A stretch of DNA of 32,000 bases, taken from NCBI GenBank assembly GCA_047651235.1, contig CP178758.1, positions 300,001 through 332,000 on the forward strand. The letters run 5' to 3'. The stretch comes from Candidatus Electrothrix yaqonensis (lineage in GTDB: Bacteria; Desulfobacterota; Desulfobulbia; Desulfobulbales; Desulfobulbaceae). This document shows positions 12,688 through 30,275 of this stretch, in pieces (position 1 is the stretch's first letter; every line of letters begins with the position of its first letter). The notes under the pieces are model-generated. The model was not told the DNA's origin, did no database searches, and worked only from the letters and a program-made list of their open reading frames with translations. Both the position numbers and the translations under genes were made by a program.

Positions 12688-13605
12688 ATGGAGGTGATTC
12701 TTGCCCGACCGCGCGGTTTCTGCGCCGGGGTGCATCGGGCGATCAATGTGGTCAATAAGGCTCTGGACCTGTACGGCCCGCCAGTGTATGTTCTGCACGA
12801 AATCGTGCATAATACCCATGTGATCAATGGATTGGCAAAAAAAGGGGCTGTATTTGTCGAGGAATTGGAGGAGATCCCGACCGGTTCAGTGACCATTTTC
12901 AGTGCCCACGGGGTTTCCCTGGCAGTCACGGAGCAGGCTCTGCGTCTGGGCCTCCGCACCATTGATGCCACCTGTCCTCTAGTCTCCAAAGTGCACCGAC
13001 GGGTCAGTCATCTGGATGACATCAATTATGATATCATCGTGATCGGCCATAAAGGACACCCGGAGGTGGAAGGAACCTGCGGCCATGCTTCCGGGCCGGT
13101 GCATGTGGTCTCTTCACCGGAAGAAGTGCAGAATATTCAGGTGGACGACCCGAAGAAAGTAGGGTATGTGACCCAGACAACGCTGAGCATCGACGATACA
13201 GCGGAAATGCTGGCAGTTCTGCAGAAGCAGTTTCCTGAGATTAGCGAACCCTCCCGAACAGATATCTGTTTTGCCACCACCAACCGCCAGGCCGCTGTCC
13301 GGGAGCTGAGCTGTTTGGTGGAGCTGCTGCTGGTGGTCGGCTCCAAAAACAGCTCCAACTCAAACCGGCTGCGCGAGGTTGCCCGAAAAAACGGGATTCC
13401 GGCCTATCTGATTGACCACGCGGAAGAGATCGATCCGGCTTGGCTGCAGGGGATCAACCGGCTCGGGGTAACAGCCGGGGCCTCTGCCCCTGAATATCTT
13501 GTCACCGACCTGATACGCTGGCTGCAGAACAGGTATCAGACAGTCACTGTCCGGGAAATGGAAGGCGTAGAGGAGTCTGTCTGTTTTCAGCTGCCTGACA
13601 TGTAG
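12688..13605 (+). CDS. ispH: 4-hydroxy-3-methylbut-2-enyl diphosphate reductase
   Basis: 305-aa ORF. It has the canonical N-terminus ..ILARPRGFCAGVHRAI, with further conserved Cys residues at TCPLV and ..DICFATTNRQ. AAGGAG SD precedes the ATG. Confidence 0.95.
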   Translation: MEVILARPRGFCAGVHRAINVVNKALDLYGPPVYVLHEIVHNTHVINGLAKKGAVFVEELEEIPTGSVTIFSAHGVSLAVTEQALRLGLRTIDATCPLVSKVHRRVSHLDDINYDIIVIGHKGHPEVEGTCGHASGPVHVVSSPEEVQNIQVDDPKKVGYVTQTTLSIDDTAEMLAVLQKQFPEISEPSRTDICFATTNRQAAVRELSCLVELLLVVGSKNSSNSNRLREVARKNGIPAYLIDHAEEIDPAWLQGINRLGVTAGASAPEYLVTDLIRWLQNRYQTVTVREMEGVEESVCFQLPDM

Positions 13606-14727: not shown

Positions 14728-14801
14728 AGTGTTTTCTCCTTGTTGATTAAGCAGACAGAAATCCCTCCGGGACATATGTATTTTTTTTTACTTCTCTTAT
14801 C

Positions 14802-14904: not shown

Positions 14905-15609
14905 CTACAATGAACGCCTGCGGACCAGCGTCAGCACTCTGGGATGACCGGAAAAAGGCAGGGAAAATTCCTTTTTCCCGATACGCTCCCATTTTTCTGC
15001 AATGCCGATTTCTTTCTGCTCTTTCTGCCGCTTCTCCGGGGAGCTGTTCTCTCCGTCATTTCCACTCATCAGAATCACTATGGTATCCTGCGCGGCAATA
15101 TTTTCCACCATAGGGAGAAAAATATCTGCAGAAGCAACAGCCCTGCCGGTGATAAAATGAAACGTAAACTTCTCCTGATCTTCCCGGTGCTGTCCCGGTT
15201 CGATCCGTTTGTCCGTAACCTCAACATTACCGAGCTGCAGGGTTCTGATAATATGCCGTAAAAAAGAAACCCGTTTTTGTCTCGGTTCGGCCAGCGTGAC
15301 ATGCAGCTTTGGCATTGCCGCAGCCAGCACCAGCCCCGGAAACCCGGCACCGGACCCCACATCCAGCAGGGTGGTTCCGGTGCTGCTGGTCTCTTTGCTG
15401 TATTGCGCGATAAGCGGCATCAAAGCCAGAGAATCCAGAAAATGCTTTTCCACGATATCAGCTGCCGTGGTGTCGCGGGCGATCAGGTTGATCCGCCTGC
15501 TCCATTTTTCCAGTTCCCGGCAGTAGCGCAGGAGCTTGTCGGTCCGGTCTTCTGAGAGTCTGAGCGCAAGCCTGTCCAGACCTTTGCGGAAATATCTGCG
15601 GTCACACAT
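14905..15609 (-). CDS. rsmG: 16S rRNA (guanine527-N7)-methyltransferase
   Basis: 234-aa ORF with GidB-family blocks: ..KWSRRINLIA..IVEKHFLDSL.. and LLDVGSGAGFPGLVLA. It has a short Lys/Glu-rich insertion near the C-terminus. Confidence 0.9.
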   Translation of the reverse strand: MCDRRYFRKGLDRLALRLSEDRTDKLLRYCRELEKWSRRINLIARDTTAADIVEKHFLDSLALMPLIAQYSKETSSTGTTLLDVGSGAGFPGLVLAAAMPKLHVTLAEPRQKRVSFLRHIIRTLQLGNVEVTDKRIEPGQHREDQEKFTFHFITGRAVASADIFLPMVENIAAQDTIVILMSGNDGENSSPEKRQKEQKEIGIAEKWERIGKKEFSLPFSGHPRVLTLVRRRSL

Positions 15610-15636: not shown

Positions 15637-18600
15637 TTATACAGAGGGGGAGCTGTCCATAATCGCCATAAAATGCTGCAGAAAGCTCTTCGGCATTTTC
15701 ACGGGTCGGATTCTCCCTGTACGGTGCGGCCAGAGCAGTGCCCAGGCTGCAGTATGGCGGCCGTGCGCCAGTTTCCTCCTTTCCCCTCCTTCACTGATGC
15801 TGTAGTATTCAAAGTACAGGGTGAACCCTTCCTGAAACAGCTCGTGCAGGTACATTGAGACCTCAACGGTTTCAAAGGGCATTGCTTCCTGCAGGTGGGT
15901 CACCTCGGCATGTAGACAGACGAATTCGCCTTCCGCGTCCCGGTGGATCATCTGCTCGGGCATCCGGGCAAACAGATAATGATCACGGACTCTGGCCTGC
16001 CAGCTGTAATAATGAGAAAAATAAATATTCCCGACCAGGTTTGAATCTTCTCTGGAGGTCGGAAACTGCTGCCGATGCAGAAGGTATTTTCTGGTTGCAG
16101 GACCTGCTGCCGTGATGCTTTTCTTCACGGAACGAAGCGGCAGTTCCTCTTTTTCCCGCATCTCATCAGCGTTTTGTGCCAGGGATAACGTTTCCAGATA
16201 TTCAAGATATTCCTGAAGGTACTCAGGCAGAGGAGCCTGCCGGACTGTTCCGTGCTCCTGAATTTCGACCCAGGTCGTTGTCAGCCTGCCGGAGGCTATT
16301 CTGCTCAGCTGACCGTCCTGCTGTTTCTTTTCCCAGCTGAATCCGAGGGATATGAAGGAAGCTGTCAGGTCCGTATCATCCAGCAGGCGCACTTTCCCGA
16401 TCATGGTATCATAACTGTCCGGATACTGATCAGCTGTAAAGGATGAATGATTGGTCACCATCCCCCATCTGCCGCTTTTCATATCCCTGACCAGCAGTCC
16501 GGCTACGGGCTTCAGGGCCAGTTCTCTCAGCTCTCCCATCCAGACCGGGATATTGGTGAAATACACCCTGCCTCCGGGGCCTCTTCCCTCCATAAACGTT
16601 GTTGTGAATTCATGGCGGAAACTGCCGATATTTTCCGGCCATGCAGCGGGATTTTCCGGTATGGGGATCTGCTGCGACAGGGGGGCATCATGGAAATCCC
16701 TTTGGCCGGTGACAGCCAGCATTCTTTCTCCCTGCAGCGTCAGACGGACCGGAAAGGTAAGAATATGACAGGAGCAGCCTGAATTTTCATCACTGCATCT
16801 GAACAGCACCGTATCGTCAATCCGTTTGGCAATGTGCATGGATTCAGGATCAGGGCGCCGGGCCCGTGCCTTGAAAAAGGTTTCCGAGGCTGCCCAGACT
16901 CTGGTGCCTGCTCTGCGCAGAGAATCTCCCTGGGCGGTCAGCCTGGCAAGCAGGGGACTACCTGTTGCTCCGAGCAGGGCTGTCCATTCTTCCTGACTGC
17001 GGGCCGCCACGGTTTCAAGATCGCATCCTTGCGGATCATGACCGACCGTGCAGATGACCGTCCCCTGATTATGGGTCAGAGAAAGATCAATGCCGCTGTC
17101 GGACGGGCTGGAAAGATGTGGTTTCCCGTCTTCCGACCAGGCAAATTCAGTCGGTGTGTCAGGAAAGTCCGGCAGAGTTTCCACGGTTTTCCTGAGCAGC
17201 AGCAGTTCCTGCTCCCGTCGTTCCTGTCTGTTCAGCCGTTCAAAGCCGGGAATAAAATCCGAATTAATTTCCGGAAGAATGCAGTGCGCAGGCAGATGCG
17301 GTTCCCGGCGCGTCAGTTCCTTCAGCAGGATCTGACGGTCACGGCGGCCGGGATGGGCCAGGTCTTCTGCTGCCGGATTGTCTTTTTTATATTCAAGAAT
17401 ATGCGCCAGATAGCCGGTTATCCGTTCAACAAGATATCCCTGACGGTTGAACACATTCAGTTTCCCGTAAATTTCTTTTGCAGTACGCCGTTCGAGAACA
17501 ACTTTTCCCCACAGCAGTTCATCTTTTTTGACAGTGCCGGGATAACGCTCTATGCGTTCGATCTTCCTGGGCAGACAGAGATCACGGGGAATCGAGACCT
17601 GCCCTGACTGGAGCAGTGCATCCCGGAAAAAAGGATCGCCGATATTCCAGGGCCAGTTCTCCTCGTTTTCCGACTCCGGATACGGTGCTGCCGTGAAGAG
17701 ACAGCGTTCTGAAGTCAACTGAAAAATCTGCCTGATTCTCTGAAACGGCGGGCCCTGAAAAAGCAGTTCTTTCGTATACAGGTCAGTTTCCGGATTGATA
17801 TCAAGAGGGGGGCCGGGTTCGGTAAATTTCAGCCGGACAGGGGGACGGTTCTTCAGCAGAATAAATGTTGCGGAAAAGTGATCTGTCCTGAAATCCGTCT
17901 GCGCCGTTCTGATCTGTACCTGCACTGTCGGGTCTGCTCCCTGCTCCTCCTGTTCCAGAACCTGAGCATGGATTTCAATCTCCGTCTTACCGGCTTCGTT
18001 CAGGGTGATCGGATGGGACAGCTGAATATCCTCAATCGATACAGAGGAGAAATCGCTGCAGCCGGTAACCGCCCGGACTGCCTGCGCCATGGCCTCAAGA
18101 CCGAAAACTGCAGGAAAGAGATAGGTGCCGCGCCGGCAGTGATGTCTGATATACGTATCCCTTTCCAGGCTCAGGTGCGCTCTGGAGAGAATTTCTATGC
18201 CGGGATAGTAGGCTGTTATTTTTTCGAGAAACTGCAGGTTGTCCGGTATGGGAGCAGGAGGAAAGGCAAAGGTGTCCAGGTCGGAGGTCCGGGCCGTGAC
18301 AACAACCTGTCCTGATCCGGGATTATGACTGATAAGACGGAGAAAACGGGCTGTTCCCTGGCGGACGGAAATCGCCTGGACACCCATCTGGGCGAGGCGG
18401 GCCGTACTGCCCATTCTGACGCCCATGCCCACTTCATCCCAGATGCTGAAGGCAATGCTGAGCACCGCAGTTTTCGGCGAGGTCTCCCGGTACCGCCGGA
18501 CAAGAAGATGGAGGGCCTCGTTGGAAAAGGCATACCAGCCGTTCTGCATCATGCCGGATATCCCTGTAATGGACGAAAACGCGACAAACAGTTTGATCGG

Positions 18601-21600
18601 ACAGTTCCGGACAGCAGTACAGAGATTGAGCGCACCGGAGAGTTTGGGCGCAATTTCCTCCAGCGCTTCATTCGCAGAGACGCTGCCCAGATCTCCGGGC
18701 CTATTCAGGGCACTGCCGTGAATGATCCCTGTAATCTCGCCCTGGCGGTTCCGCACCTGCCGGACAAGTCTGTTGACCGCATCAGCATCTGTGACGTCAC
18801 ACTGATAGTATTCCGCAGCAAGCCCTGCGTTTCTGAATCTGCTGAGCGTCCGGAGGATTTCGTTATGCTGTTCCTTGTGCTGCGGCAGGGGGGAACTGCC
18901 CACCAGAGCCATCTGCACCGTGGTGGTCCGGGCAAATTCCAGAGCACATTCCGCAGTGATTCCTTTTGCGCCTCCGGTAACCAGGACAACATCTCCGGGC
19001 GACCAGGTGATTGATCTTGCTGTATACTCGGCACGGTTTTTCAGAACAGGCCGGGGAACCCGACGGATCTCATCGGTGCTGTATCCGACTGCAGAGTAGG
19101 GTTCAGCTGTGGCCAGTTCGGCCATGATGTGTCTGCAAAGCTTTTCCGGGGGGAGCTGCGGAGAAAAGTCGAGAACTCGCACCTTGAGGTGGGGACGTTC
19201 AAGGTGCATGCTGGCTGCCAGGGCTTTTGCCGAACAGCGTTCAATCTCAGCCGTAACTGGCCCGCTGCCGAAAAAACCGTCGCCGAACTGAATAACTGCA
19301 AAGATATTGTCCTGCAGCCCGATGGTATGGAAGGGATGGGAAAAGATGGTGTGCAGCCGGATCACATGCCGGACAAGGCGTTTCCTGTCTGCTGTTTTAT
19401 GCGCTGCCTGCCGGGGCAGCAGAGCAATGATCGTGGTGAATCTGTGCAGAAAAGAAGAAGAGGAGGCGCGGACATCGGCAAAGAGCGCACACTCGGCCTT
19501 TGCCGAAGAACGGATAAAATATTGTTCGAGATGTCCGGCCAGTTCCTGTTCTTCAGGTTCAGAAAGGATAAGTACCTGTTCGTTCTTGCGGACAGTGTTT
19601 TTCCCGGATGCCGTTTCAGCTGGCAGAGGTTCCGGTGAATACCGGATAGTGAAGTCGCGGACCCATGCCGGATATTGTGCCTCCTCTTTCGTCTCCGTGC
19701 TGTCCTGAGTGGCTGCTTTGCCAAGAAGATCCGTCAGTTCCTGCAGGGTTGCATTGGCGTGTTCCGGAACATTCAGTTTTGCCGCTGCAATACCTGCTTT
19801 GCCTGCTGCTTCGGCAATCAGTTCGGATGCCTTGATGGAATCAAGATTCAGATCATCCAGCAGGCGCAGGTCCGGTGACAGGCTTTCCTGCGGGAAACCT
19901 GTCCGCCGTTCAATCAGAGTAAAGAGGAGTTCCGGGATGGAGAGCTGTTCTGCAAAATTATCCGATGCCGGTCCGAGCGATGCCGAAGGGAGCCGTCTGT
20001 TGCCAAGCTCTGGAGTTCCGTTCTGCTGCGGGAAGTTACCGGACATACTGTCCAGGTCTGCCCTGACGACTCTACCGAGAAAGCGGCCCCGCTGTGCCAG
20101 ATACGCTGCCAGCTTTTCCCGGGGGATACCGGCAGCTCCAGCCAGCAGAGACTCAGTCGGACTATTCTGTTCAGGCCTGGGCAGGATGTCGGCTGCCCGG
20201 GAAAAGCCGGTTTCCGGCCGGGAGGGAAAGGGATCTTCACAGGGATTGGTCAGAAAGACACGTTCTCCGGCCGGGGTAAACGGTCGGACAAGGCGATCTT
20301 CATACAGGGCCTGCTGACTGACAGTACCTCCGTGGACAAAATAGACAGCCAGAAAGAAAAGCAGATCTCTGGATAGGCCCGGTTCGGATTCAACAGGAAA
20401 ACAGCAGGACGGTTCATCGGTATTCCCCGCATTAGCTGTAGTACCCGCGTTACCCGTATTGCCCGGATAATCTGAACTGCGTATTGCATGCACAAGACCG
20501 GTCAGTATCTGCCCCGGACCGACTTCCACCAGCAGATCACACCGGCTCTGCATCTGCTGCACCAGGCGGATAAAATCAACCGGTTCCACAACCTGATCGG
20601 CAAAGTGCCGGATAAGATCGGTCTCCTCCGTAATTTTTCGCTCCTGTATCCCGGTAACCACCGCAGCAGTCAGTTGTTCCGGCAGTTCGGGAATAATTTT
20701 GCTTTCGGCAAGCTGCTGTGCGGCAGAGGCAACGAATTGTGAGTGAAAGGCATTGGCAACCGGCAGGATCCGGGCTGTGATGTTCTGCTTTTCAGCCAGT
20801 CGGCAGACTTGGTTTACGCAGTTGATGTCACCGGAAATCACGGTCTGGGACGGGCTGTTTCTGTTTGCCGTAACAGCATAGCCGTCGGTCCGGTCGATCA
20901 GGCTCCGGGCTGTTGCGGCCGAACAGGCAAGACTGGCCATTGTCCCGGCAGCATCGGGCTGCGGCGCCATTGCCTGCCCCCGGAAGGCGGCAAACTTGAG
21001 CAGATCCTCCCGTGTATAGGCTCCGGCTGCATGAAACGCAGTCAGTTCGCCCAGACTGTGTCCGGCTGCAGCCTCCGGTCGGATACCGAGCCGGGCAAGT
21101 TTCTCCAGCCAGAGCACAGAGGCCAGACAGATGGCCGGCTGCGCGATTTCCGTCTGTTTGAGCTGTTCCTGCCACAGGGTTATCCGGGCGGCATCCGGTG
21201 CTCTTTCCGTCGGTCGGAACATAAAGTCGGTCAGCTGTTCTCCTTCGGGCCAGTCCAGCGCCTGTTCAGCAGCACGGACGATATCCTGTGCCCAGTCATG
21301 CCGAAGAACAAGGCTGCGCGCCATGTTGAGCTGCTGTGATCCCTGGCCGGGAAACAGAAAACCGACCCTGCAGCGCTGTACGTTGTTGCCGATGCAGATG
21401 CCTGACCGGCTGTCAATATGCGCTGTTCCATTTTCCGGCGGAGCACTCCGGAGTATCTCTTCAAGCCGGGCCAGACTTTTAGCAAGTGAATCCGGCGAAC
21501 CTGCCGTCACAGCGGCCCGGACACTCCCGATCCCGGTCCCGCTACCGGTTCCGTCCTGTCCGTACCGCTCTCCAACATGGGCAGCAAAGTCGGCGAGTTC

Positions 21601-23178
21601 GCCCTCACAGATTCCCTGGGCAAGATCCCGGATCGTCTGTATTCTGTCCGGCAGCTCGGAAATTGTCGGGGCGCTGACCAAAAAAAGTTCGGTATCCTGA
21701 TGTCCGGCCAGCAGCTTCTGCTCCGGCAGGGCAGGCAGCAGTTTCGGTGAGGGAGCATCACCTGATTCAATCGTAAGATGGCAGTTGATGCCGCCGAACC
21801 CCATCCCTGATATACCGGCACGCAGGGTTTTCCGGCTGTCCCGGATTTCTCCGTTCAGGATAGGATACAGATCTGTGGCTTTATCGGCAAAGACTGGATG
21901 CGGCTCAGTACAGTTGGCCGTAGGCGGCAGCACCCGTCGGTTGACCGCGATAACCGCTTTGATCAGGGCGCCGATGCCGGATGCCGCTTTGGTATGGCCG
22001 ATGATGGACTTCAGCGAGGTGATACCGCAGCGGCGGAGCTGTCCTGTCCGGTCGGATTGCTCGGATTTGCTGTTCAACCCGTCGTTCATTGCCCGGACAA
22101 TGGCCTCCAATTCCGTCTTATCACCCACCGTCGTGCCGGTTCCATGTCCTTCAATGAAATCCAGATCGTGGATATTCCAGCCTGCCTTTTTGTATGCGCG
22201 CAGCAGCGCTCTGGCCTGGCCCGGCGCATTCGGGGCAGTCAGGCCGCCTTTGCCGTCAGAAGAGATGCCCCAGCCTTTCAGGACGGCATAAACAGGGATC
22301 CCGGCGGCAACTGCGTCCTCCAGCCGCTGCATGACCACAAAACCGCATCCTTCTCCGGGCATGAAACCGTCTGCCCGACGGTCATAGACCCGCATATCCG
22401 TGCTGGTCAGGGCAGCGGTTTTGGCAAAACCGACCAGTTCAAGGGTATCCAGGCTGACATCCACCCCGCCTGCCAGAGCCAGATCCAGTTCTCCGTTGCT
22501 GAGATGTGCTGCCGCTGTTGCTGCGGCAAGGAGCGAAGACGCACAGGCGCCGTCCACTGTATAGCCGCCGCCGTGCAGGTCGAGATAATTGCAGATGCGC
22601 CCGGCGATGGTGTTGGACAGGGCCCCGGCCAGAGTATCTTCGGTGACAGGTGCAAAAATCGACTTGTAATATGCTTCGGCTGTATCGATCAGGTCGGCTG
22701 CACAGGAAAATGAGAAACCTTTTTCCTGTGCAGCAGCCTGCAGGACACGACGGACAAAGGGCCAGCGGAGACGCAGACCCTGGGCACGGGAATATTCGCC
22801 GGTCAGGCTGTTGCCAAGAATCACACCGGAGCGTTCTTTCGGGACAGCATTTTTTTTGAATCCCGCATCTTCCAGAGATGCAAGGGCGACCTGCAGAGCC
22901 AGCCAGTGCACGATATCCGTGGACTCGAAGGCTGAACGGGGGACACGGTACCTGACCGGGTCAAAAGAAAAACCGTCCAGCAGAGCGGCCCTGCAGCAGT
23001 AGGTCTTATCCGGTGCACCCGGGTCCGGATCGTAATAATCCGCCGCAGACAGGCGGGAAGCCGGGATAGGGCGGAACTGCCGTCTTTGTGTCAGAATATT
23101 TTCCCAGAACGAGCGCAGGTTTTTTGCTCCGGGATAATGACAGGCCATGCCGATGATGGCGATCGGCGTTGAATTCAT
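15637..23178 (-). CDS. iterative type I polyketide synthase, KS-AT-ACP-KR-DH-PPTase (enediyne PKSE-like order) with fused C-terminal tandem hot-dog thioesterase domains
   Basis: The start is taken at MNSTPIAIIGMACHYPG (ATG 23178); the track start at 23322 overlaps the upstream gene.
- KS: TVDGACASS (Cys codon 22545-22543), EGHGTGT, GHTKAASG.
- AT: FPGQGSQ, GHSLGE (Ser codon 21057-21055).
- ACP: LNLDSIKA (Ser codon 19839-19837).
- KR: VLVTGGAKGIT (18981-18955) and the catalytic-Tyr region GWYAFSNEA.
- DH: exact HxxxGxxxxP match, HCRRGTYLFP (His codon 18141-18139).
- PPTase: GKPHL..IDLSLTHNQG..GCDLE (17028-17014)..RVWAASETFFKA.
- Two 4HBT-like hot-dog units, at about 16629-16258 and about 16080-15703; the latter includes EDSNLVGNIYFSHYYSWQ. 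Confidence 0.93.
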   Translation of the reverse strand: MNSTPIAIIGMACHYPGAKNLRSFWENILTQRRQFRPIPASRLSAADYYDPDPGAPDKTYCCRAALLDGFSFDPVRYRVPRSAFESTDIVHWLALQVALASLEDAGFKKNAVPKERSGVILGNSLTGEYSRAQGLRLRWPFVRRVLQAAAQEKGFSFSCAADLIDTAEAYYKSIFAPVTEDTLAGALSNTIAGRICNYLDLHGGGYTVDGACASSLLAAATAAAHLSNGELDLALAGGVDVSLDTLELVGFAKTAALTSTDMRVYDRRADGFMPGEGCGFVVMQRLEDAVAAGIPVYAVLKGWGISSDGKGGLTAPNAPGQARALLRAYKKAGWNIHDLDFIEGHGTGTTVGDKTELEAIVRAMNDGLNSKSEQSDRTGQLRRCGITSLKSIIGHTKAASGIGALIKAVIAVNRRVLPPTANCTEPHPVFADKATDLYPILNGEIRDSRKTLRAGISGMGFGGINCHLTIESGDAPSPKLLPALPEQKLLAGHQDTELFLVSAPTISELPDRIQTIRDLAQGICEGELADFAAHVGERYGQDGTGSGTGIGSVRAAVTAGSPDSLAKSLARLEEILRSAPPENGTAHIDSRSGICIGNNVQRCRVGFLFPGQGSQQLNMARSLVLRHDWAQDIVRAAEQALDWPEGEQLTDFMFRPTERAPDAARITLWQEQLKQTEIAQPAICLASVLWLEKLARLGIRPEAAAGHSLGELTAFHAAGAYTREDLLKFAAFRGQAMAPQPDAAGTMASLACSAATARSLIDRTDGYAVTANRNSPSQTVISGDINCVNQVCRLAEKQNITARILPVANAFHSQFVASAAQQLAESKIIPELPEQLTAAVVTGIQERKITEETDLIRHFADQVVEPVDFIRLVQQMQSRCDLLVEVGPGQILTGLVHAIRSSDYPGNTGNAGTTANAGNTDEPSCCFPVESEPGLSRDLLFFLAVYFVHGGTVSQQALYEDRLVRPFTPAGERVFLTNPCEDPFPSRPETGFSRAADILPRPEQNSPTESLLAGAAGIPREKLAAYLAQRGRFLGRVVRADLDSMSGNFPQQNGTPELGNRRLPSASLGPASDNFAEQLSIPELLFTLIERRTGFPQESLSPDLRLLDDLNLDSIKASELIAEAAGKAGIAAAKLNVPEHANATLQELTDLLGKAATQDSTETKEEAQYPAWVRDFTIRYSPEPLPAETASGKNTVRKNEQVLILSEPEEQELAGHLEQYFIRSSAKAECALFADVRASSSSFLHRFTTIIALLPRQAAHKTADRKRLVRHVIRLHTIFSHPFHTIGLQDNIFAVIQFGDGFFGSGPVTAEIERCSAKALAASMHLERPHLKVRVLDFSPQLPPEKLCRHIMAELATAEPYSAVGYSTDEIRRVPRPVLKNRAEYTARSITWSPGDVVLVTGGAKGITAECALEFARTTTVQMALVGSSPLPQHKEQHNEILRTLSRFRNAGLAAEYYQCDVTDADAVNRLVRQVRNRQGEITGIIHGSALNRPGDLGSVSANEALEEIAPKLSGALNLCTAVRNCPIKLFVAFSSITGISGMMQNGWYAFSNEALHLLVRRYRETSPKTAVLSIAFSIWDEVGMGVRMGSTARLAQMGVQAISVRQGTARFLRLISHNPGSGQVVVTARTSDLDTFAFPPAPIPDNLQFLEKITAYYPGIEILSRAHLSLERDTYIRHHCRRGTYLFPAVFGLEAMAQAVRAVTGCSDFSSVSIEDIQLSHPITLNEAGKTEIEIHAQVLEQEEQGADPTVQVQIRTAQTDFRTDHFSATFILLKNRPPVRLKFTEPGPPLDINPETDLYTKELLFQGPPFQRIRQIFQLTSERCLFTAAPYPESENEENWPWNIGDPFFRDALLQSGQVSIPRDLCLPRKIERIERYPGTVKKDELLWGKVVLERRTAKEIYGKLNVFNRQGYLVERITGYLAHILEYKKDNPAAEDLAHPGRRDRQILLKELTRREPHLPAHCILPEINSDFIPGFERLNRQERREQELLLLRKTVETLPDFPDTPTEFAWSEDGKPHLSSPSDSGIDLSLTHNQGTVICTVGHDPQGCDLETVAARSQEEWTALLGATGSPLLARLTAQGDSLRRAGTRVWAASETFFKARARRPDPESMHIAKRIDDTVLFRCSDENSGCSCHILTFPVRLTLQGERMLAVTGQRDFHDAPLSQQIPIPENPAAWPENIGSFRHEFTTTFMEGRGPGGRVYFTNIPVWMGELRELALKPVAGLLVRDMKSGRWGMVTNHSSFTADQYPDSYDTMIGKVRLLDDTDLTASFISLGFSWEKKQQDGQLSRIASGRLTTTWVEIQEHGTVRQAPLPEYLQEYLEYLETLSLAQNADEMREKEELPLRSVKKSITAAGPATRKYLLHRQQFPTSREDSNLVGNIYFSHYYSWQARVRDHYLFARMPEQMIHRDAEGEFVCLHAEVTHLQEAMPFETVEVSMYLHELFQEGFTLYFEYYSISEGGERRKLAHGRHTAAWALLWPHRTGRIRPVKMPKSFLQHFMAIMDSSPSV

Positions 23179-23203
23179 TTCTGTTGCCTTGATCAGAAAT
23201 AAT

Positions 23204-24433
23204 TCAGAAGAAATACTGCAGCTCAAAGATAAGATGCGGGTCATCCGCAAAGGCGGAGGCAGGATCTGTCCCGTCGGCATCCAGAACAGACATTGCCTCA
23301 ATATGCAGCAGCATCTGTTCACCTATCCGGCGTTTTCCTTCAACGGAAAAGATATATGTCGATAGCTCAACATCTTTCATAATACCAGTCAGTATTTCGG
23401 TCCCGGCCGTATCGTTCAGGGCCAAGCGGAGGCCACCCATCATGTCATTATTAAAAGGGGAAAGAATATTGTCTGCACGGTCATCAAAAATGTATTCGCC
23501 GATAAGGCCGAGATCCATTGCGCTGTCATTGATACCGAAAAAGGTGTATTCAACTCCGCAGACAGCAGCGGCAAACGGACGGCCCTGACCGGAACGGTAC
23601 AGGGCTTCACCTTTCAGCAGCCACCTGCCTACCGCCATCTGCAGATCCAGCCCGGTCTGGCTGATCTGCGGGTAAAAGGGCAGCAGGACAGGATAATCAG
23701 GCGTATCAGACGTTCCGCCCGGCAGCAGATCAGGTTCACGGGACGTGCCGACAAAATGATACAGACCGACATCAGCATCGCCAAAAGTAGTGCTGTAGCG
23801 GAGCGCAAAATCAACATGGTGCTGTTCAGCCGCGCTTTCATATATGGCCTGCTCAGTATCAACGACCACCGGCGTACGCAGCCGGTCTTTTTCTCCGCCA
23901 AAGGTACGCTCCCGAAACCAGGGCAGGACAAAGGCGTCCACAGTGCCCCGATCCATGAACAGGGAAAAACGCAGCATGGGCTGACCTAGTTTTTCTTCGC
24001 CGTCAAACCCTTCCACCCCGTCTGTCTGATTGATAATATCCACAAGGTGAACAAATTCTGCAGCCCCCCAGAATACCTTGCTGAGACCGATCTGCACATC
24101 CAGGTTGTCACCGGCATAGAGAAAATTCGCCTCCCGGATATCCGAGTGACTCCGTTGATCCGTACTGCTGTCCAGACGGGCAAATGGTTTGAGGACAAGC
24201 TGTGACCCGCTGCTGAACCTGTGATAGAATTCCGGCTCGATCGCCACCGAAGCATTATGCTGCTCCTGGGAAGCGTAAGCGGGTTCTTCCGGGAAACAAC
24301 GTCCTTCCAGGGCGATGTTCCCGCTCAGCTCGGCAGCGGATATTGACAGGGGAATGTACAGGAAGAGTGCTCCCGGGAGCAGATGCCGGAACCGGGTGAA
24401 AACAGTCTGTCTCATTCTTATAGAGCAGTTCAT
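23204..24433 (-). CDS. putative outer-membrane beta-barrel protein (unknown family)
   Basis: 409-aa ORF. It has an N-terminal signal-like segment (LLPGALFLYIPLSISAAE), alternating beta-strand-like composition and a C-terminal ..ELQYFF. Its ATG overlaps the upstream stop (TAATG at 24435-24431). Confidence 0.6.
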   Translation of the reverse strand: MNCSIRMRQTVFTRFRHLLPGALFLYIPLSISAAELSGNIALEGRCFPEEPAYASQEQHNASVAIEPEFYHRFSSGSQLVLKPFARLDSSTDQRSHSDIREANFLYAGDNLDVQIGLSKVFWGAAEFVHLVDIINQTDGVEGFDGEEKLGQPMLRFSLFMDRGTVDAFVLPWFRERTFGGEKDRLRTPVVVDTEQAIYESAAEQHHVDFALRYSTTFGDADVGLYHFVGTSREPDLLPGGTSDTPDYPVLLPFYPQISQTGLDLQMAVGRWLLKGEALYRSGQGRPFAAAVCGVEYTFFGINDSAMDLGLIGEYIFDDRADNILSPFNNDMMGGLRLALNDTAGTEILTGIMKDVELSTYIFSVEGKRRIGEQMLLHIEAMSVLDADGTDPASAFADDPHLIFELQYFF

Positions 24434-25254
24434 TACCTTGCCCGCCGCAGGCTGTTCCGATGGAAATCCTTTTCCTGCAGACCAGTCTGAAACCGGTAAT
24501 TGTTGTAGAGCAGGACGGTTGATTTCCCGTTCTGATGATTCACCATGTGCAGTTTTCCGGCCCGCCAGTATTTGCCGAGATACTGCTCATAGTCAGTAAG
24601 GGTGAGGGTTTTCAGATGACTGTTTCTGCGGTCATAAAATTCCGCCTTCCTGATGCGGTATTCGTCCTTGTCCAGCCAGACGGTCTGGCGGCTGTAGCCG
24701 GAATTTTTCCGGTCAATAGGATAGTAGTCCACCACAGTGCAGTCATGGCCATCCAGAGTTTCATCACGCAGATATTTATAGGTGTATTTTTCAGTTTCCT
24801 GACCGGAAATGTCCTCATAGGAGAATTCACTTCCCATAAACGAGCCGGATTTGTTGCGTGAGCTGATACGCTTTACCCGTTTCAGAGCAGGAAGATACAG
24901 CCACTGGTCGTCATCTCCTGTTTTGTGCGAAAAGGAGAGAAGGGCGGTTCCCTTGACATCAGGGGGGGTATGAAAGATCAGCAGGGTCTTATCACCATCT
25001 CCCTTTACCTCCAAAACTTTGTATGTCAACTCCCGTCGGCTTTTCTGGCCGCTTCTATTGCGCAGAATCATCACCAGTTCAGCGGTCAGGTCACCAAACC
25101 CCTGATCACGGCGTTCAGCTTCCACGGCAATGGCACGGCCCTTTTCCTCAGGGCTTTCGGCCCGGCCCGGAGTGCAGCAGGATAATACATAAAAAATGCA
25201 GACAAAAATAACTGGTATGACGGTTGCTCGGAATGCGGGAAACTTCATAGTCAT
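24433..25254 (-). CDS. LolA-like 'outer membrane lipoprotein-sorting' family periplasmic protein
   Basis: 273-aa ORF with a signal peptide. The characteristic block is DQWLYLPALKRVKRISSRNKSGSFMGSEFSYEDI. GGAGG lies 5 nt upstream of the ATG. Confidence 0.8.
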   Translation of the reverse strand: MTMKFPAFRATVIPVIFVCIFYVLSCCTPGRAESPEEKGRAIAVEAERRDQGFGDLTAELVMILRNRSGQKSRRELTYKVLEVKGDGDKTLLIFHTPPDVKGTALLSFSHKTGDDDQWLYLPALKRVKRISSRNKSGSFMGSEFSYEDISGQETEKYTYKYLRDETLDGHDCTVVDYYPIDRKNSGYSRQTVWLDKDEYRIRKAEFYDRRNSHLKTLTLTDYEQYLGKYWRAGKLHMVNHQNGKSTVLLYNNYRFQTGLQEKDFHRNSLRRAR

Positions 25255-25289
25255 AGTTTCCTCCTTTTGTCAGGATATGTCAATATGCT

Positions 25290-27644
25290 TCAGTCTTGGA
25301 TGTTCTTTGATTTTTTCCGCTGGCAGCAGAACAGAAACTCTGCGTCAGTTGCGGAGCGGTCGAATTGGATCAGCAGGACAGGGAGAAAGAAGAGATCGAA
25401 CAGCAGAGCAAAGCTGATGGTGATCACGGTCATGCCTCCCAGATGGGCGTTGATCTGAAAACCGGAAGCGCTCAATACCAGGAAACCGCCGATCAGAGTC
25501 ACTGTGGAGATCCACATAGGAAAACCGACTGTTCTGAAGGCAGAGCGGACAGCGTCCTCCGAAGACATTTTTTTTCTGAGCCGTCCGTGCTGGTATTTGG
25601 CCAGAAAATGGACAGTGTCATCTACCACAATGCCCAGCGTCACGGCAAGCATCACCGAGACCGCAAGCCCGACCCGGCCGACAAAATATCCCCACACACC
25701 GAATCCTATAAAGGCGGGAGCAAGATTGGGCAGCAGACTGAGTATTCCCAAGCTGCAGTTGCGCAGAACTGCCGTCATAATAAGCGAAATCAGGATCAGG
25801 GCAAGCAGGGAGGCAAAGAGCATGGCTTTGACATTCCGCTCCGAGAGGTGAGCAAACATCATAGTCATACCGGAACCGTGGGTATACATGGAGGGAGGGG
25901 CGTGCTCCTTCAGCCAGTTCCTGGCAGCGAGTTCTAGTTTCCGCAGATCCCTGCTGCCGGCTTCGGTAAGGGAGACGGTCATCCTGGTCGCGGATTTGTT
26001 CACATTGATCCGGTCATTCAGATCCAGTCCGAAGGGGAGATTCATTTCGTAAAGCAGCAGATACTGGGCTGCCAGCCTGCGGTCTGCCGGGAGCCTGTAA
26101 TACGCCGGGTCGTTGTTGTGCATGTCACGGTTGATCCGCTGCATAATATCGGTAAATGTATAGACGTGACAGACATGCTTCTGACGGCGGAACCACTCGG
26201 CAAACGCTTCAAGAGTACGTTGGTAGTCCGGGTCGTTTATTCCGCCTTCCCGGCCGGAATCAAGGTCCCAGTCAATCATGTACATACCGGTCAGGTTGTT
26301 GTTCGTAAAATCCGTGGCCCGGCGAAAGTCGAAGCGGGGGCTGAAATATTTGATAAAATCCTCGTCCAGCTGAAGCCGTGGTATCCCGGCAGCTGCAAGG
26401 AGAATCACCAGCAGAGTACCGGGCAAGATCGCCGTACGTCTGGCTATGACAAATTCAGCAAGTTGTTCAAAAAGAAGCACTGAACGGGCGTCTGAATGCT
26501 TCGGGGCTTTGACAGGCAGAACAGCTGCTAGGGCCGGCAGGAAGAAAATCGAGTAGAACAGTGCGGCAATAACTCCCATGGCCACGATATTGCCGAGATC
26601 ATGAAAGGGCGGAGCATCGGAGAAATTCATGCTGAGGAAGCCGACAGCCGTGGTCAGGCTGGTCACCAGAACAGGCTGCAGGTTGATCCGTATGGCCTGT
26701 TGAATCGCCTGCTGACGGTCATCTCCGAGCCGCATCCGATGAAACATGGTTCCCAGGATGTGAACCGAGTCCGCAACCGCAAGGGTAAGGATAATTGTCG
26801 GTGCATTTGCCGAAGCAGGGTTTATGGAAATGCCCAACCAGCCGGCCAGCCCCATGCCGGTCAGAGCGGAAAGAAAAATAACAAAAAAGGTTGCAGACAT
26901 GCCGAGAACAGAACGCAGGCAGAGGGCCAGAATCAGAAGCAGAACGCAGCACATGACAGGCACCAGCAGCTCTATGTCCTCCTCGGCCGCCTTTCTGAAT
27001 GTGTGGTCGAACATCACAATGCCGGTGGCATAGATACCCAGCTGCGGATATTTTTGTATCATTTTATCCCGCAGAACATACGCGGCAGCAGCGATTTCTT
27101 CCGATTCTCCACCTGTTTTTTCTGGTTTCACAACATTGACATTAACACCGGTCACATGCCCTGAGCGGGAAATCAGCCGTCCTTTCAGCAGCGGTTCGTT
27201 CAGGACAACGGTCCGTACCTTGTCCAGCTGTGCTGCACTCAGCCGCTCAGCCTCTTCATCAACCAGATTTTCGACAGTCAGCTCGTCTCCTTCCACCCTG
27301 GTATATTGAAAATTGGTGATGGAATCCACTCTGCTGGAATAGGGGAGCTGCCATGCCTGCCCGGTTAAATCCTGCACAGCACTGAGGACATCCCGTGTAA
27401 AGACATTTCCGGATTTCGGGGCAACTGTAAAGAAAACATTTTCCGATTTGGTGTAGGTCTGTTCCAGATGAGTGAACGCCAGGAGCTGCGGATTGTCCTC
27501 TGAAAAAAATATCCTGCTGTTGCTGGAAAAGGTGAGCGAACGGATACCGATCCCGCTTGCGCCTGCAACCAGCAGAGCGAACAGAATCACCAGCCATCTG
27601 TATCTGACCGTAAACCGTCCGATCCAGCCCCCGACTTTTTCCAT
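25290..27644 (-). CDS. RND-superfamily exporter, MMPL/HpnN-like (COG1033-type)
   Basis: 784-aa ORF. It has two repeated halves, each with a large loop followed by a bundle of TM helices. The N-terminus (RFTVRYRWLVILFALLVAGASGIGIRSL) and the ..FFSEDNPQL.. block are typical of this exporter class. Confidence 0.85.
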   Translation of the reverse strand: MEKVGGWIGRFTVRYRWLVILFALLVAGASGIGIRSLTFSSNSRIFFSEDNPQLLAFTHLEQTYTKSENVFFTVAPKSGNVFTRDVLSAVQDLTGQAWQLPYSSRVDSITNFQYTRVEGDELTVENLVDEEAERLSAAQLDKVRTVVLNEPLLKGRLISRSGHVTGVNVNVVKPEKTGGESEEIAAAAYVLRDKMIQKYPQLGIYATGIVMFDHTFRKAAEEDIELLVPVMCCVLLLILALCLRSVLGMSATFFVIFLSALTGMGLAGWLGISINPASANAPTIILTLAVADSVHILGTMFHRMRLGDDRQQAIQQAIRINLQPVLVTSLTTAVGFLSMNFSDAPPFHDLGNIVAMGVIAALFYSIFFLPALAAVLPVKAPKHSDARSVLLFEQLAEFVIARRTAILPGTLLVILLAAAGIPRLQLDEDFIKYFSPRFDFRRATDFTNNNLTGMYMIDWDLDSGREGGINDPDYQRTLEAFAEWFRRQKHVCHVYTFTDIMQRINRDMHNNDPAYYRLPADRRLAAQYLLLYEMNLPFGLDLNDRINVNKSATRMTVSLTEAGSRDLRKLELAARNWLKEHAPPSMYTHGSGMTMMFAHLSERNVKAMLFASLLALILISLIMTAVLRNCSLGILSLLPNLAPAFIGFGVWGYFVGRVGLAVSVMLAVTLGIVVDDTVHFLAKYQHGRLRKKMSSEDAVRSAFRTVGFPMWISTVTLIGGFLVLSASGFQINAHLGGMTVITISFALLFDLFFLPVLLIQFDRSATDAEFLFCCQRKKSKNIQD

Positions 27645-27909
27645 TCTGTTCTCTTCCTGTTCGTGTTATCGTGTTATTTATGGGGTTATCGTACTGCCTG
27701 TATTCAGCAGTCGGTATCCGGACCGACTTGACCGGACCCGCTGACAACAGAATGACTATAACTTCCATAACGCTGCATTACAATGATTTCATTTCAATGG
27801 AATCGGGAATCAGATGAGGCTGCGCCGGTATTAAAAGATAAATGATAATAATGTAACGAGAATTAGGGGTTAAAATTTATGACGAAAAATCAAGAGGATA
27901 AAGCTGCCA

Positions 27910-27923
27910 GATTCTGCAGAATC
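27910..27923. promoter_or_regulatory. perfect 14-bp palindrome in the divergent intergenic region (candidate operator)
   Basis: GATTCTGCAGAATC is its own reverse complement. A third half-site-like copy, GATTTTCTG, follows at 27930-27938. Confidence 0.3.
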
Positions 27924-28066
27924 GGAACGGATTTTCTGTAACTATCTGTTTTTGCTGAGACCGGATAATCCAACTCCTAATTCGCATAAGTAATAAATTT
28001 TCTGGAAGGTTACATAGGTATTTATGATATTCACTTTTTTAGATGCATTATTTACAATAAAACGTG

Positions 28067-28095
28067 TGGAACCAAACCATGTTTAAGTGTATAAT
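28067..28095 (+). promoter_or_regulatory. candidate sigma-70 promoter with extended -10 for the NACHT gene
   Basis: TGGAAC (28067-28072) is followed by a 17-nt spacer ending in TG and then TATAAT (28090-28095). This lies about 90 nt upstream of the GTG start at 28185. Confidence 0.4.
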
Positions 28096-28184
28096 CCGAT
28101 ACATAACCTGCTCCGGACAGCGGCTGGCATCGTGTCTTTTCGGAGTCTTAATCTGTAACCGGGGAAAAACACAAGGAGAACATT

Positions 28185-30275
28185 GTGGGACTTGGGCTGA
28201 AGCGTCTATCCTTTGTCAGCGTCGGATCGGTCAGGCAGCTGCGGAAGCAGCTGAAAAACCTTTCCGGCGATCAGGCCCAGGCACTGAATCTGTTACGGGA
28301 TGATTTCGCTGATCCATCTGATCTGGCGAGATACTATGTGGAACCCCATCTTCAGGAGAGCTGTCCTGTCCCGCAGCATGGAGGACATTATTTTCCTGCT
28401 CCCCGGCAGGCGGCTTTTTCTTTGCTTAATACCTTTCTTGCCGCCAGTATGTCTTTGAGCAAAGACGGCAGCCGCGAGCTGATTCTGCTCGGAGAATCGG
28501 GATCAGGAAAAACTTCGCTTCTGCTCATGATCGAGCTGATGTATCTTGCCGGGTTCTGGCCTAAGGGGTATCATTGTCTGCTGTTCAGGCTTGACGAGCA
28601 TACTCTGGAACACATGGAGGCAATTGAAAATAAAGCGGAGACCGTTCTGCTGCTCGACGGACTGAATGAGGACCGGCTGGCCAGGAACCGCCCTCTTGAG
28701 CGGCTGCTGACAATACTACATGCCGGAGAGGATTTCAGGCGGGTAATTCTTACCTGCCGCAGTCATTTTTTTCCGCCGCTGGAAGCGGACAGCTCAGGGC
28801 GCCTCAGGATAGGGGGACTGTCCGGCTATAATTACCCCATCCTCTATCTGGCACCGTTTAATGCCAGCCAGATTCAGGAGGTAACGCATAACCGTCTCTC
28901 CCGGAATACGAATTACTTTCAGAGTTTTGGGGTGTGGCGACAGAGGACACGGGCCGCTCAGCTACTTGCCGGAGCAGAGAAACTGAGGATGCGACCGGTT
29001 CTCCTGCAGCATGTCGAGATTCTACTGGATTTTGATGTGCAGAAAGGACGCGACGTTTATGCTGTGTATGAATATCTGATCCGACATTGGCTTAACCGGC
29101 AGATCCGCAGGTTGGAGGAGGTCGAATGCGAATCCGTCCCGGTACAGGATGAATTGTTCAGCGCCTTTGTCCGGCTTGCCTGCTGGATGGAGGAGCAGGA
29201 CAGAACAGAGGTAGCGGAAAAAAAACTTCGGGAGCTATTCTGCAAGGATGCCGACAGCTGCTGGCTGGAAGAATTTCAGCCCGACAACAGCAGTCTGCTG
29301 CACAGAACTTCGAAACAGGCCTTCCGGTTCACCCATTCTACTTACAGGGAATTCCTGCTTGCCTATGCCCTGATTCATGACAGAACATCGTCCGGGACAC
29401 AGCCGTCTGTCCCGGTGCGTGCCACGGAACAGATCGTGCGTTTTCTTGATCTTGCTGGCGGGGCGGCAAACTATGTTGACCGGCTGGATCTTGCTGTGTT
29501 CAACCCGTTCCGTTATGTGGATTCATACAGAACCTTGTTTTTTTGGCAGGATCGGCTGACCCGGATGGGGAAGCGCTATCTGAAAGGGCCGGAAATGGTT
29601 ATGCTGCCCGGCGGACGTTTCAGGATGGGTGACAGCCAGGGGAGCGGCTCGGACGATGTCCGCCCGGTGCATGAGGTGGAGCTGGACACGTTTGCCATTG
29701 GTCGGTATCCAGTTACTTTTGAGGAATATGATTTTTACTGCATGGCTACAGGCCGGGCAAAACCGCCAGACAACGGCTGGGGCAGGAAGCGGCGGCCGGT
29801 GTTCAATGTCAGCTGGCAGGACGCCAATGATTACTGCGACTGGCTGCGGAGAATGACCGGACGGCCGTACCGGCTGCCCACTGAGGCGGAATGGGAATAT
29901 GCCTGTCGGGCGGGCAGGGATTCGGCGTATTGTTTCGGAGACGATGCGGAACAGCTCCCGGAGTATGCCTGGTATGCTGAAAACGCCGACAATCAGACCC
30001 ATCCGGTGGGGATGAAAAGGGCTAACGTCTGGGGGCTGCATGATATGTACGGCAATGTCTGGGAGTGGTGTTCGGACAGGTATGATAAGGACTATTATAC
30101 CGAGCTTCCGGTAAGGAACCCGTCAGGCACTGACCAGGGAGCAGGCCGAGTTCTACGGGGAGGTTCCTGGGACAGCAGTGAGCGGTTCATCCGCTCGTGC
30201 TTTCGCTTCTGCCTTTCACCCGGACTGCGTATTATCCGGGTGGGATTCCGGGTGGCACAGGGAGAGGATGAGTAG
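28185..30275 (+). CDS. NACHT-type STAND NTPase with C-terminal FGE-sulfatase (SUMF1-like) domain
   Basis: 696-aa ORF with a GTG start and AAGGAG 8 nt upstream.
- Walker A: LLGESGSGKTSLL (about 28491-28517).
- Walker B, NACHT-style: VLLLDGLNED (28644-28673).
- Further NACHT blocks: VILTCRSHFF, YLAPFNASQIQEV, and the winged-helix-like FTHSTYREFLLAYAL.
- C-terminal domain, aa ~468-693 (29586-30263): PGGRFRMG, NVSWQDANDYCDWL, YRLPTEAEWEYACRAG, HDMYGNVWEWCSD, RVLRGGSW, VGFRVA. Confidence 0.9.
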   Translation: MGLGLKRLSFVSVGSVRQLRKQLKNLSGDQAQALNLLRDDFADPSDLARYYVEPHLQESCPVPQHGGHYFPAPRQAAFSLLNTFLAASMSLSKDGSRELILLGESGSGKTSLLLMIELMYLAGFWPKGYHCLLFRLDEHTLEHMEAIENKAETVLLLDGLNEDRLARNRPLERLLTILHAGEDFRRVILTCRSHFFPPLEADSSGRLRIGGLSGYNYPILYLAPFNASQIQEVTHNRLSRNTNYFQSFGVWRQRTRAAQLLAGAEKLRMRPVLLQHVEILLDFDVQKGRDVYAVYEYLIRHWLNRQIRRLEEVECESVPVQDELFSAFVRLACWMEEQDRTEVAEKKLRELFCKDADSCWLEEFQPDNSSLLHRTSKQAFRFTHSTYREFLLAYALIHDRTSSGTQPSVPVRATEQIVRFLDLAGGAANYVDRLDLAVFNPFRYVDSYRTLFFWQDRLTRMGKRYLKGPEMVMLPGGRFRMGDSQGSGSDDVRPVHEVELDTFAIGRYPVTFEEYDFYCMATGRAKPPDNGWGRKRRPVFNVSWQDANDYCDWLRRMTGRPYRLPTEAEWEYACRAGRDSAYCFGDDAEQLPEYAWYAENADNQTHPVGMKRANVWGLHDMYGNVWEWCSDRYDKDYYTELPVRNPSGTDQGAGRVLRGGSWDSSERFIRSCFRFCLSPGLRIIRVGFRVAQGEDE

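Follow-up and report, generated by a model that had tools for sequence, protein, structure and literature searches.

We analysed a 32,000-nt stretch of DNA from Candidatus Electrothrix sp. YB6 (contig CP178758.1, positions 300,001 to 332,000 of the forward strand; Candidatus Electrothrix yaqonensis in assembly GCA_047651235.1). The whole stretch is called the window, and all positions are counted from its first letter. YB6 is a cable bacterium, and its contig is 3.74 Mb long. Four co-directional open reading frames (ORFs) are tightly packed on the minus strand of the window, in the order resistance-nodulation-division (RND) transporter, LolA_like periplasmic carrier, outer-membrane beta-barrel protein (OMP) and type I polyketide synthase (PKS). 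Our reading is that the PKS is a self-sufficient polyene synthase of the enediyne polyketide synthase (PKSE) type, and that its product is most likely exported by the three adjoining genes (the triad), which resemble the Ame system. We give this reading as a whole a probability of about 55%. The identity and architecture of the PKS itself are held with high confidence.

Architecture of the polyketide synthase

The PKS gene (15637..23178, minus strand, as are all four genes) encodes an iterative enzyme of 2,513 aa. Pfam, motifs, profiles and a tree assign it to clade II of the PKSE superfamily (see below), with the domain order KS-AT-ACP-KR-DH-PPTase-hotdog-hotdog. The protein is NCBI protein P0001 of Electrothrix sp. 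YB6 (100% identity and coverage). The start codon, ATG at position 23178, is the one used in the NCBI model and fits the N-termini of homologues. An alternative GTG is found at 23322; the ORF is open upstream to this codon, overlapping the end of the OMP gene.

The ketosynthase (KS) domain (residues 4-472, 21763..23169) was detected with PF00109 and PF02801. Its catalytic Cys212, His345 and His395 are present, with the motifs DGACASS, EGHGTGT and GHTKAA. The acyltransferase (AT) domain (residues 607-900, 20479..21360; PF00698, 121 bits) carries GHSLGE with Ser708. A single acyl carrier protein (ACP) domain (residues 1085-1151, 19726..19926) was matched weakly by PF00550 (E = 0.0027), and its motif LDDLNLDSIK, which contains Ser1114, was invariant in 20/20 homologues. 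Two to three ACPs were found in the relatives L005, L030 and L046. The ketoreductase (KR) catalytic subdomain (residues 1398-1581, 18436..18987; PF08659, 99.5 bits) possesses GGAKGIT and Tyr1549, and the dehydratase (DH) domain (residues 1663-1928, 17395..18192; PF21089 and PF14765) possesses H1680-x3-G-x4-P and Asp1853. The PKS has neither an enoylreductase (ER) nor a methyltransferase domain. In an alignment with 19 homologues, every catalytic motif of the PKS was intact.

The phosphopantetheinyl transferase (PPTase) region gave no match in Pfam, NCBIfam or a single-sequence PDB search. However, a profile of residues 1955-2170 matched Sfp (1QR0) with E = 2.4e-6, and then AcpS entries, and the Sfp-type PPTase domain was placed at about residues 1974-2160 (16699..17259). 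The motifs GKP, SHS, G-x-D-x-E and W-x-x-x-E-x-x-K align with Sfp, and SL(S/T)H, QGCDxE and WxxxExxxK are conserved in the homologue alignment. A fold search with a model of the C-terminus listed hotdog thioesterases alone, without a PPTase structural match, and the DynE8 KS-AT structure was not among the PDB sequence matches of the PKS. An earlier note on this DNA, made from the letters alone, had proposed the order KS-AT-ACP-KR-DH-PPTase. Domain calling by Pfam, the motifs and the PPTase profile showed that this order is correct, but the note's domain list left out two C-terminal hotdog domains.

These two tandem thioesterase domains make up the approximately 320 residues C-terminal of the PPTase. 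Hotdog domain 1 (about residues 2190-2335, 16174..16611) is diverged. It lacks, in the alignment, the Asn of the E10 motif 'TNLVGN', and it was matched by E10 proteins at 16632-16201 with E down to 4e-7 (tblastn). Hotdog domain 2 (about residues 2362-2505, 15664..16095) is an E10-type thioesterase that keeps the E10 motif EDSNLVGNIYFSHYYSWQARVRD; PF13279 matched it weakly. Its matches in the PDB were CalE7 (E = 2.8e-15), then DynE7, then 4i4j ('ACP-polyene thioesterase'), which we take to be SgcE10. In CalE7, Asn19, Tyr29 and Arg37 are presumably the catalytic residues. Both hotdogs were also matched by separate E10 proteins from 18 cassette loci (tblastn).

An AlphaFold (AF2) model of the C-terminal 608 residues (pLDDT 83.4) resembled double-hotdog acyl-ACP thioesterases, with a target-normalised TM of about 0.7. 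Among 1.84 billion proteins, the double-hotdog module had 220 representatives at E <= 1e-30, mostly the C-termini of 2,100-2,800-aa proteins. The module is thus a modest family. Since an E10-type thioesterase is fused in cis, the idea of a self-contained PKS, already put forward in the earlier note, is stronger than was claimed there.

Position within the PKSE superfamily

The PKS was compared with loci obtained by a profile- and alignment-guided scan of species-representative genomes, of which the best 80 loci, genuine actinomycete enediyne loci included, were taken. No Electrothrix genome was among these 80 loci, and the Electrothrix contexts came from exact-protein look-ups. A genome scan with the PKS as a single-protein query gave no match. 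The ORFs of all loci were clustered with 60% coverage required, and DUF1702 (E3), FG-GAP/UnbV_ASPIC (E4), a polytopic membrane protein (E5) and the E10 thioesterase were recovered as families. Because of the coverage requirement, the neighbourhood family counts are lower bounds. The five-gene enediyne cassette is known to include E3 (DUF1702/UnbL), E4 (UnbV/FG-GAP) and E5 (UnbU-like) (PMC5181780).

A neighbour-joining (NJ) tree was built from the KS to the PPTase of 72 enzymes (1,829 columns, midpoint-rooted, with no polyunsaturated fatty acid (PUFA) synthase outgroup). Loci with split or truncated PKSs were put in a clade by best-hit scores. The tree splits into clade I and clade II with 50/50 bootstrap support. 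Clade I enzymes have about 1,900-2,000 aa, and their hosts are actinomycetes, Acidobacteriota, Planctomycetota, Kapaibacteriota, Chlorobiota, Verrucomicrobia, methanotrophs and a metagenome-assembled genome (MAG) of Clostridia. Clade II enzymes have 2,200-3,200 aa with fused hotdogs, and are found in Electrothrix, other Desulfobacterota, Nitrospirota, cyanobacteria, Methylococcus, Pandoraea and others. The window PKS belongs to clade II, as the sister of the MAG L006 (49/50 support). In the KS-AT region, it shares about 40% identity with clade I enzymes and 47-57% with other members of clade II. From residue 4 to residue 2104 or 2111, it is colinear with the cassette-linked PKSEs of a Verrucosispora (L034) and an Acidobacteriota locus (L027), at 33.5-34% identity. 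Many homologues of the window PKS carry the JGI label 'enediyne polyketide synthase'.

At least two of E3, E4 and E5 were found within 10 kb of the PKS at 16 of the 21 non-actinomycete clade I loci. In contrast, none of the 41 clade II loci had two of them, and E5 was not detected at any (0/41). No E3, E4 or E5 was found in L002-L007. Within the 32-kb window, tblastn with 37-43 examples per family gave chance-level matches at most, which bears out the earlier note, where no such gene had been seen. One E3-like match (12630-12842, E = 7.5e-4, 31.6 bits) lies antisense to ispH and was judged to be chance. Because the PKS belongs to the sister clade and no clade II locus (0/41) combines two or more of E3, E4 and E5, it is PKSE-like and not part of an enediyne cluster.

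The earlier note had likened the PKS, by its domain order, to the SgcE/CalE8/DynE8 class. The pairs SgcE/SgcE10, CalE8/CalE7 and DynE8/DynE7 do share with it the domain order, the colinearity, the E10-type hotdog motif and the lack of an ER, so that the likeness stood, E10-type partner included, whereas membership of the same clade did not. Unlike in these pairs, the thioesterase of the window PKS is part of the same polypeptide and has been duplicated to form a double hotdog. Further differences from enediyne PKSEs are its place in the sister clade, the lack of the partners E3 (DUF1702), E4 (UnbV/FG-GAP) and E5 (UnbU-like), and the host, an anaerobic or microaerophilic cable bacterium of the Desulfobulbaceae.

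We considered an ordinary enediyne pathway with E3, E4 and E5 lying outside the window. The domain order and the E10-type thioesterase are as in enediyne PKSEs, the search covered a 32-kb window of a 3.7-Mb genome, and full cassettes do occur in Gram-negative phyla, having been noted in methanotrophs (PMC8788690). However, the clade position with its 50/50 bootstrap, the cassette counts of the two clades and the chance-level matches in the window all speak against such a pathway, and we regard it as exceedingly improbable. On this sequence evidence, the locus is a PKSE-superfamily iterative PKS without an enediyne pathway.

A long acyl chain for a membrane lipid, made by a 'secondary lipid' synthase of the PUFA or heterocyst-glycolipid type, was also considered. 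The NCBIfam PfaA model TIGR02813 scored 546 bits on the KS-AT region of the PKS, slightly above true PKSEs (492-506 bits), with coverage running through the AT. The enediyne and PUFA KS clades are neighbours in published trees (PMC4247773), and the two to three ACPs of some relatives would also fit such a synthase. Nevertheless, the score is far under the PfaA cut-off of 1010 bits, as are those of the true PKSEs, so that in NCBIfam the window enzyme resembles the latter. It also possesses a single ACP and no ER. No PfaB/C/D-like, other KS, ER or FabA-type genes were found in the window. The C-terminal PPTase and the E10-type thioesterase are PKSE hallmarks, and the colinearity with PKSEs runs through to the PPTase. 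Thus, a PUFA- or glycolipid-type synthase is highly unlikely.

The neighbourhoods of the clade II relatives vary. Many clade II PKSs have a flavin amine-oxidase/CrtI-like unit fused C-terminally or adjacent (L005, about residues 2715-3217; L006, 14143-15606; L020; L055). Neither the Electrothrix enzymes nor the window has this unit. Since so many relatives carry it, the product of the family may differ from the clade I heptaene, which is a point against a polyene of that kind. FAD-oxidase, halogenase and GGDEF-EAL homologues were looked for as partners of the system; none is present in the window, and they were rejected. The remaining genes of the window are unrelated to polyketide tailoring.

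Other features were observed in the superfamily. Some clade II PKSs have a fused PilZ domain (P0012, P0079, P0089, P0116), and four Nitrospirota loci and the Methylococcus locus have GGDEF-EAL genes next to the PKS (L008, L010, L020, L037, L030). These are hints that the clade II enzyme class may be under c-di-GMP control. The cyanobacterial clade II loci (L016-L019, L021, L023, L039, L055) have one to three FAD halogenase-like genes. Several of the cyanobacterial loci also carry DUF1702 (E3-like) genes, in one to three copies, together with HlyD/FtsX/ABC exporter genes that resemble DevBCA, and in several the PKS is split into two ORFs. Canonical E3/E4/E5/E/E10-type cassettes, each with an MMPL-type RND gene, were found at L026, L027, L043, L053, L057, L060, L065, L066, L071 and L080; the hosts are Acidobacteriota, Planctomycetota, Kapaibacteriota, Chlorobiota, Verrucomicrobia and Methylotuvimicrobium. 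An MMPL-type RND gene was not detected at any of the 25 actinomycete loci.

The exporter triad and its possible link to the synthase

The earlier note had named the other three genes an RND exporter, a LolA-like protein and a beta-barrel, and all three identities were correct. The first gene (25290..27644) encodes an inner-membrane RND transporter of the MMPL type, probably of the HAE3 family, with 784 aa. PF03176 (MMPL) matched it with 115 bits in two stretches, together with sterol-sensing and Patched matches. The best RND model was TIGR00921 (HAE3; 174 bits, under the cut-off of 351.9), and the HpnN and actII models scored weakly. The protein is 67-72% identical to those of other Electrothrix genomes and 41% identical to that of Methylotuvimicrobium L071.

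The second gene (24433..25254) encodes the LolA_like periplasmic carrier, a TP_0789-like, DUF1329-related protein of 273 aa with an N-terminal signal sequence. It was matched by PF17131 (231 bits) and by DUF1329 (E = 1e-9).

The third gene (23204..24433) encodes the OMP, 409 aa, a beta-barrel and, as judged from its homologues, probably a distant relative of DUF1302. The OMP itself has no Pfam or NCBIfam match. It possesses a signal peptide and ends in ...YFF. The AF2 model (pLDDT 78.5, pTM 0.72) is a beta-barrel of about 20 strands, and matched porins and AlgE in Foldseek with E of about 1e-9 and TM of about 0.5. More than 3,000 homologues were found, and DUF1302 (PF06980) was matched in 6 of 33 close ones.

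The junctions were read in the sequence. A 35-nt gap containing a strong AAGGAGG ribosome-binding site for the LolA_like ATG separates the RND and LolA_like genes, the LolA_like and OMP genes overlap at TAATG, and 25 nt lie between the OMP and PKS genes. These are the spacings given in the earlier note, and the four-gene layout was confirmed. NCBI places the OMP start six codons later, giving 403 aa; with this start, the overlap would vanish.

The closest characterised system that the triad resembles, as judged from protein families, appears to be AmeABD. AmeABCD of Castellaniella defragrans consists of the HAE3 RND protein AmeD, the DUF1302 outer-membrane protein AmeA, the DUF1329 LolA-superfamily protein AmeB, and AmeC, and confers tolerance to apolar monoterpene hydrocarbons (PMC6394551). 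Likened by family and length, the two systems share an RND protein of about 785 aa, in the window putatively of the HAE3 type, and a LolA-superfamily protein, and the barrels of both may be of the DUF1302 type. They differ in that the window has no AmeC-like (BNR/COG4447-like periplasmic) gene between or beside the three genes. In addition, the LolA_like protein is of the short PF17131 type (273 aa, versus 451 aa in AmeB), and the barrel is a distant DUF1302 relative of 409 aa (versus 605 aa in AmeA).

Of seven genomes or contigs of the Electrothrix lineage, six share the order of the four genes, namely YB6, E. scaldis, E. communis, E. aarhusensis and two metagenome contigs. In all of these except YB6, the order is CbiG-RND-LolA_like-OMP-PKS-RecQ. 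In YB6, rsmG and a STAND-FGE gene flank the block in place of CbiG and RecQ. Since both flanks have changed while the four genes have stayed together, the rearrangements respected the block. Co-transcription of the four genes is predicted from the sequence.

Exporter genes of other kinds also recur beside these PKSs. An AcrB-type RND gene lies directly upstream of the PKS in the sister locus L006, with an MFP gene, and in Methylococcus (L030). LolA_like genes directly adjoin the PKS in two MAGs of the Bdellovibrionota type, and two other loci have them nearby (L041, L012, L035 and L076 altogether). HlyD/FtsX/ABC exporter sets lie near the PKS in cyanobacterial clade II relatives. An exporter of one of these kinds was found at 16 of the 41 clade II loci and at 12 of the 21 diderm clade I loci, and at none of the 25 actinomycete loci. 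This recurrence of non-orthologous exporter neighbours argues that products of the PKSE type are exported in diderm bacteria.

The PKS and the triad may, however, be neighbours and not partners, and several results weigh on this side. The triad would then be an independent module for hydrophobe efflux or outer-membrane lipids, and the PKS product would stay inside the cell or leave it in another way. In 80 metagenomic loci, LolA_like was directly upstream of the OMP in 53/62 and the RND gene was present in 39/43, but an adjacent PKS was found at none of the 42 triads for which the metagenomic sequence extended 2 kb or more downstream. The sole other recurrent neighbour was a TetR gene, at 12 triad loci. 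Triads without a PKS occur in other phyla, as in a Phycisphaerales genome, and also in a Desulfobulbaceae genome, with LolA_like and OMP 52-62% identical to those of YB6; LolA_like is 55-62% identical to the copies in the PKS-less triads L089 and L090. Such stand-alone triads argue that a triad of the YB6 type does not depend on the PKS. Conversely, in Electrothrix AX1 the triad is missing, and CbiG immediately precedes the PKS.

Within Electrothrix, too, the conserved order may reflect shared ancestry, since the synteny reaches CbiG and RecQ. Elsewhere in the genus, the OMP and PKS genes lie as close as 14 nt or as far apart as about 170 nt or more. RecQ and rsmG are packed just as tightly downstream of the PKS, and as rsmG is a housekeeping gene, tight packing is not peculiar to the four genes. 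Finally, the PKS frame is broken in two genomes in which the triad is intact. In E. communis (CP130629; L088, 11567-19112), it is broken once, near residue 390, just before the histidine of GHTKAA. In E. aarhusensis (MTKO01000085; L171, 11397-18931), it is broken at least four times, at other positions than in E. communis.

The block of YB6 nevertheless remained intact although both flanks changed. Independent, non-orthologous exporters stand beside PKSE-like genes in many lineages, the sister L006 included. Moreover, the predicted product is the type of apolar molecule that Ame-type systems handle (PMC6394551). We regard it as a serious possibility, though on balance a doubtful one, that PKS and triad are neighbours only. 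The triad is thus a generic unit, which was joined to the PKS within the Electrothrix lineage. A functional coupling of the PKS to the exporter is plausible on this comparative evidence, with the balance about even. The adjacency of PKS and exporter, whose conservation the earlier note had named as a check on its reading, thus held in six of the seven cases from the Electrothrix lineage, whereas AX1 lacks the triad and the exporter is not specific to the PKS.

The broken frames also bear on whether the PKS of cable bacteria is decaying or silent, a relic with no current role. They could be real decay or assembly errors. Against a relic, the frame of about 2,500 aa is open in YB6, E. scaldis, AX1 and the two metagenome contigs, and at a sequence divergence of 58-62% no catalytic motif has been lost, a sign of purifying selection. 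We consider a relic very improbable.

Both E. communis (L088, about 12679-12708) and E. aarhusensis (L171, 12501-12530) have a perfect palindrome of 30 nt, TGTAGGGACACGGCATGCCGTGTCCCTACA, in the part of the PKS gene that codes for the variable loop of the KS. This palindrome is absent from the window.

On the 5' side of the RND gene, an AT-rich intergenic region of 540 nt (27645..28184) separates the block from a divergent plus-strand gene at 28185. A scan of this region gave two sigma-70-like matches on the minus strand (27873-27845 and 27783-27755), both weak and based on the consensus only. The region is likely the promoter region of the block, as judged from its position and sequence. Promoter and terminator scans of the window gave weak consensus matches at most, and no Rfam family was matched in the window. 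The divergent gene (28185-30275, plus strand) encodes a 696-aa STAND/NACHT-like NTPase fused to an FGE-sulfatase (formylglycine-generating enzyme-like) domain. E. communis also has an FGE-sulfatase gene, located upstream of the block at a distance of a few kb.

On the 3' side, 27 nt separate the PKS stop from rsmG (16S rRNA methyltransferase G; 14905..15609, minus strand; PF02527, 130 bits). This gene is regarded as a neighbour only, and it may be co-transcribed with the PKS. Just 3' of rsmG and on the same strand lies a gene for an omptin-like outer-membrane protein of 340 aa (13753-14775; PF01278, E = 9e-10). Further away, a minus-strand gene (8064-9671) encodes a 535-aa protein with 18 MORN repeats (Pfam, 439 bits), which is unusual for bacteria. 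The sulfatase-domain ORFs at 1743-2186 and 3235-4596 (minus strand) look like two halves of one gene, and between them lie a DDE transposase ORF (2272-2916) and a small ORF (2913-3251). The stretch 1-7000 has 37-45% GC, against about 55% elsewhere. The low GC of this sulfatase/transposase region suggests an insertion or an island.

Proposed product and meaning of the locus

All tested pairs of a PKSE and its thioesterase give 1,3,5,7,9,11,13-pentadecaheptaene, and the thioesterase is required; the heptaene of SgcE/SgcE10 was followed there at 370 nm (PMC9992847). By analogy, we propose the following scheme for the window PKS. The in-cis Sfp-type PPTase would prime the single ACP, and KS, AT, KR and DH would act iteratively on malonyl units. 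As neither an ER nor a methyltransferase domain is present, the chain on the ACP would be a fully conjugated polyene. The fused C-terminal double-hotdog thioesterase would free this chain, giving a linear, very hydrophobic polyene, such as pentadecaheptaene or a related hydrocarbon or ketone. Since there are no E3, E4 and E5 to make an enediyne, the polyene would probably be the end product or close to it. From the analogy with the tested pairs, a product of the polyene type is probable. The RND pump would then take up the polyene from the inner membrane, the LolA_like carrier would keep it shielded on its way through the periplasm, and the barrel would hand it to the outer membrane or the cell surface.

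Polyene or lipid synthases beside an MMPL/RND pump and LolA-like components, with the product localised in the envelope, are known from aryl-polyene and flexirubin clusters and from mycobacterial MmpL-PKS pairs; the aryl-polyene and mycobacterial cases had been cited as precedents in the earlier note. The window locus differs from the aryl-polyene clusters, which use discrete type II FAS-like enzymes and not one megasynthase. It also differs from the mycobacterial MmpL proteins (HAE2), as the window RND protein scored 108 bits on TIGR00833, whose cut-off is 874.7.

Uncharacterised 'enediyne-like' type I PKSs have been reported from marine sediment, Deltaproteobacteria and cyanobacteria (PMC10308959, PMC4247773). 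Matched by description and host phyla, they are very likely the same class as clade II. These surveys were made at the level of KS tags or cluster families, and the fused double hotdog, the missing cassette and the exporter neighbourhoods are not described there. No characterised member of clade II was found in the literature searched, PKSE-like and enediyne-like topics included, nor was any literature linking cable bacteria with a polyketide synthase. The earlier note's remark that the combination had not been characterised holds to this extent, although the class had already been noticed.

Marine sediments show an enrichment of enediyne-type KS tags, and these are assigned to phyla without any reported enediyne (PMC10308959). 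The present locus gives this signal a concrete form, that of a PKSE sister clade without enediyne-forming partners. As judged from the loci compared here, clade II appears to be a cassette-less, thioesterase-fused sister clade of PKSE, which in YB6 is joined to an Ame-like exporter. Since the activating and releasing domains are fused in, one gene should suffice for the product in E. coli, and the question of what the non-actinobacterial enediyne-like PKSs make is directly testable.

In cable bacteria, the periplasmic conductive fibres make any conjugated exported molecule of note. A polyene exported to the periplasm or the outer membrane might even be a functional component of the envelope, either a redox-active or electron-delocalising lipid on the conductive fibres or an antioxidant that protects the filament at its oxic end. 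We consider this very unlikely and speculative. Two Electrothrix genomes have a PKS that seems to be broken or not needed, which argues against an essential role at the conductive fibres. Were this reading true, the clade II enzymes and their exporters would represent a class of envelope polyene lipids that is widespread among diderm bacteria and has gone unrecognised. If the link to the exporter is true, diderm bacteria would place PKS-made polyene hydrocarbons in their envelope, in parallel with aryl polyenes and hopanoids, by means of a single megasynthase.

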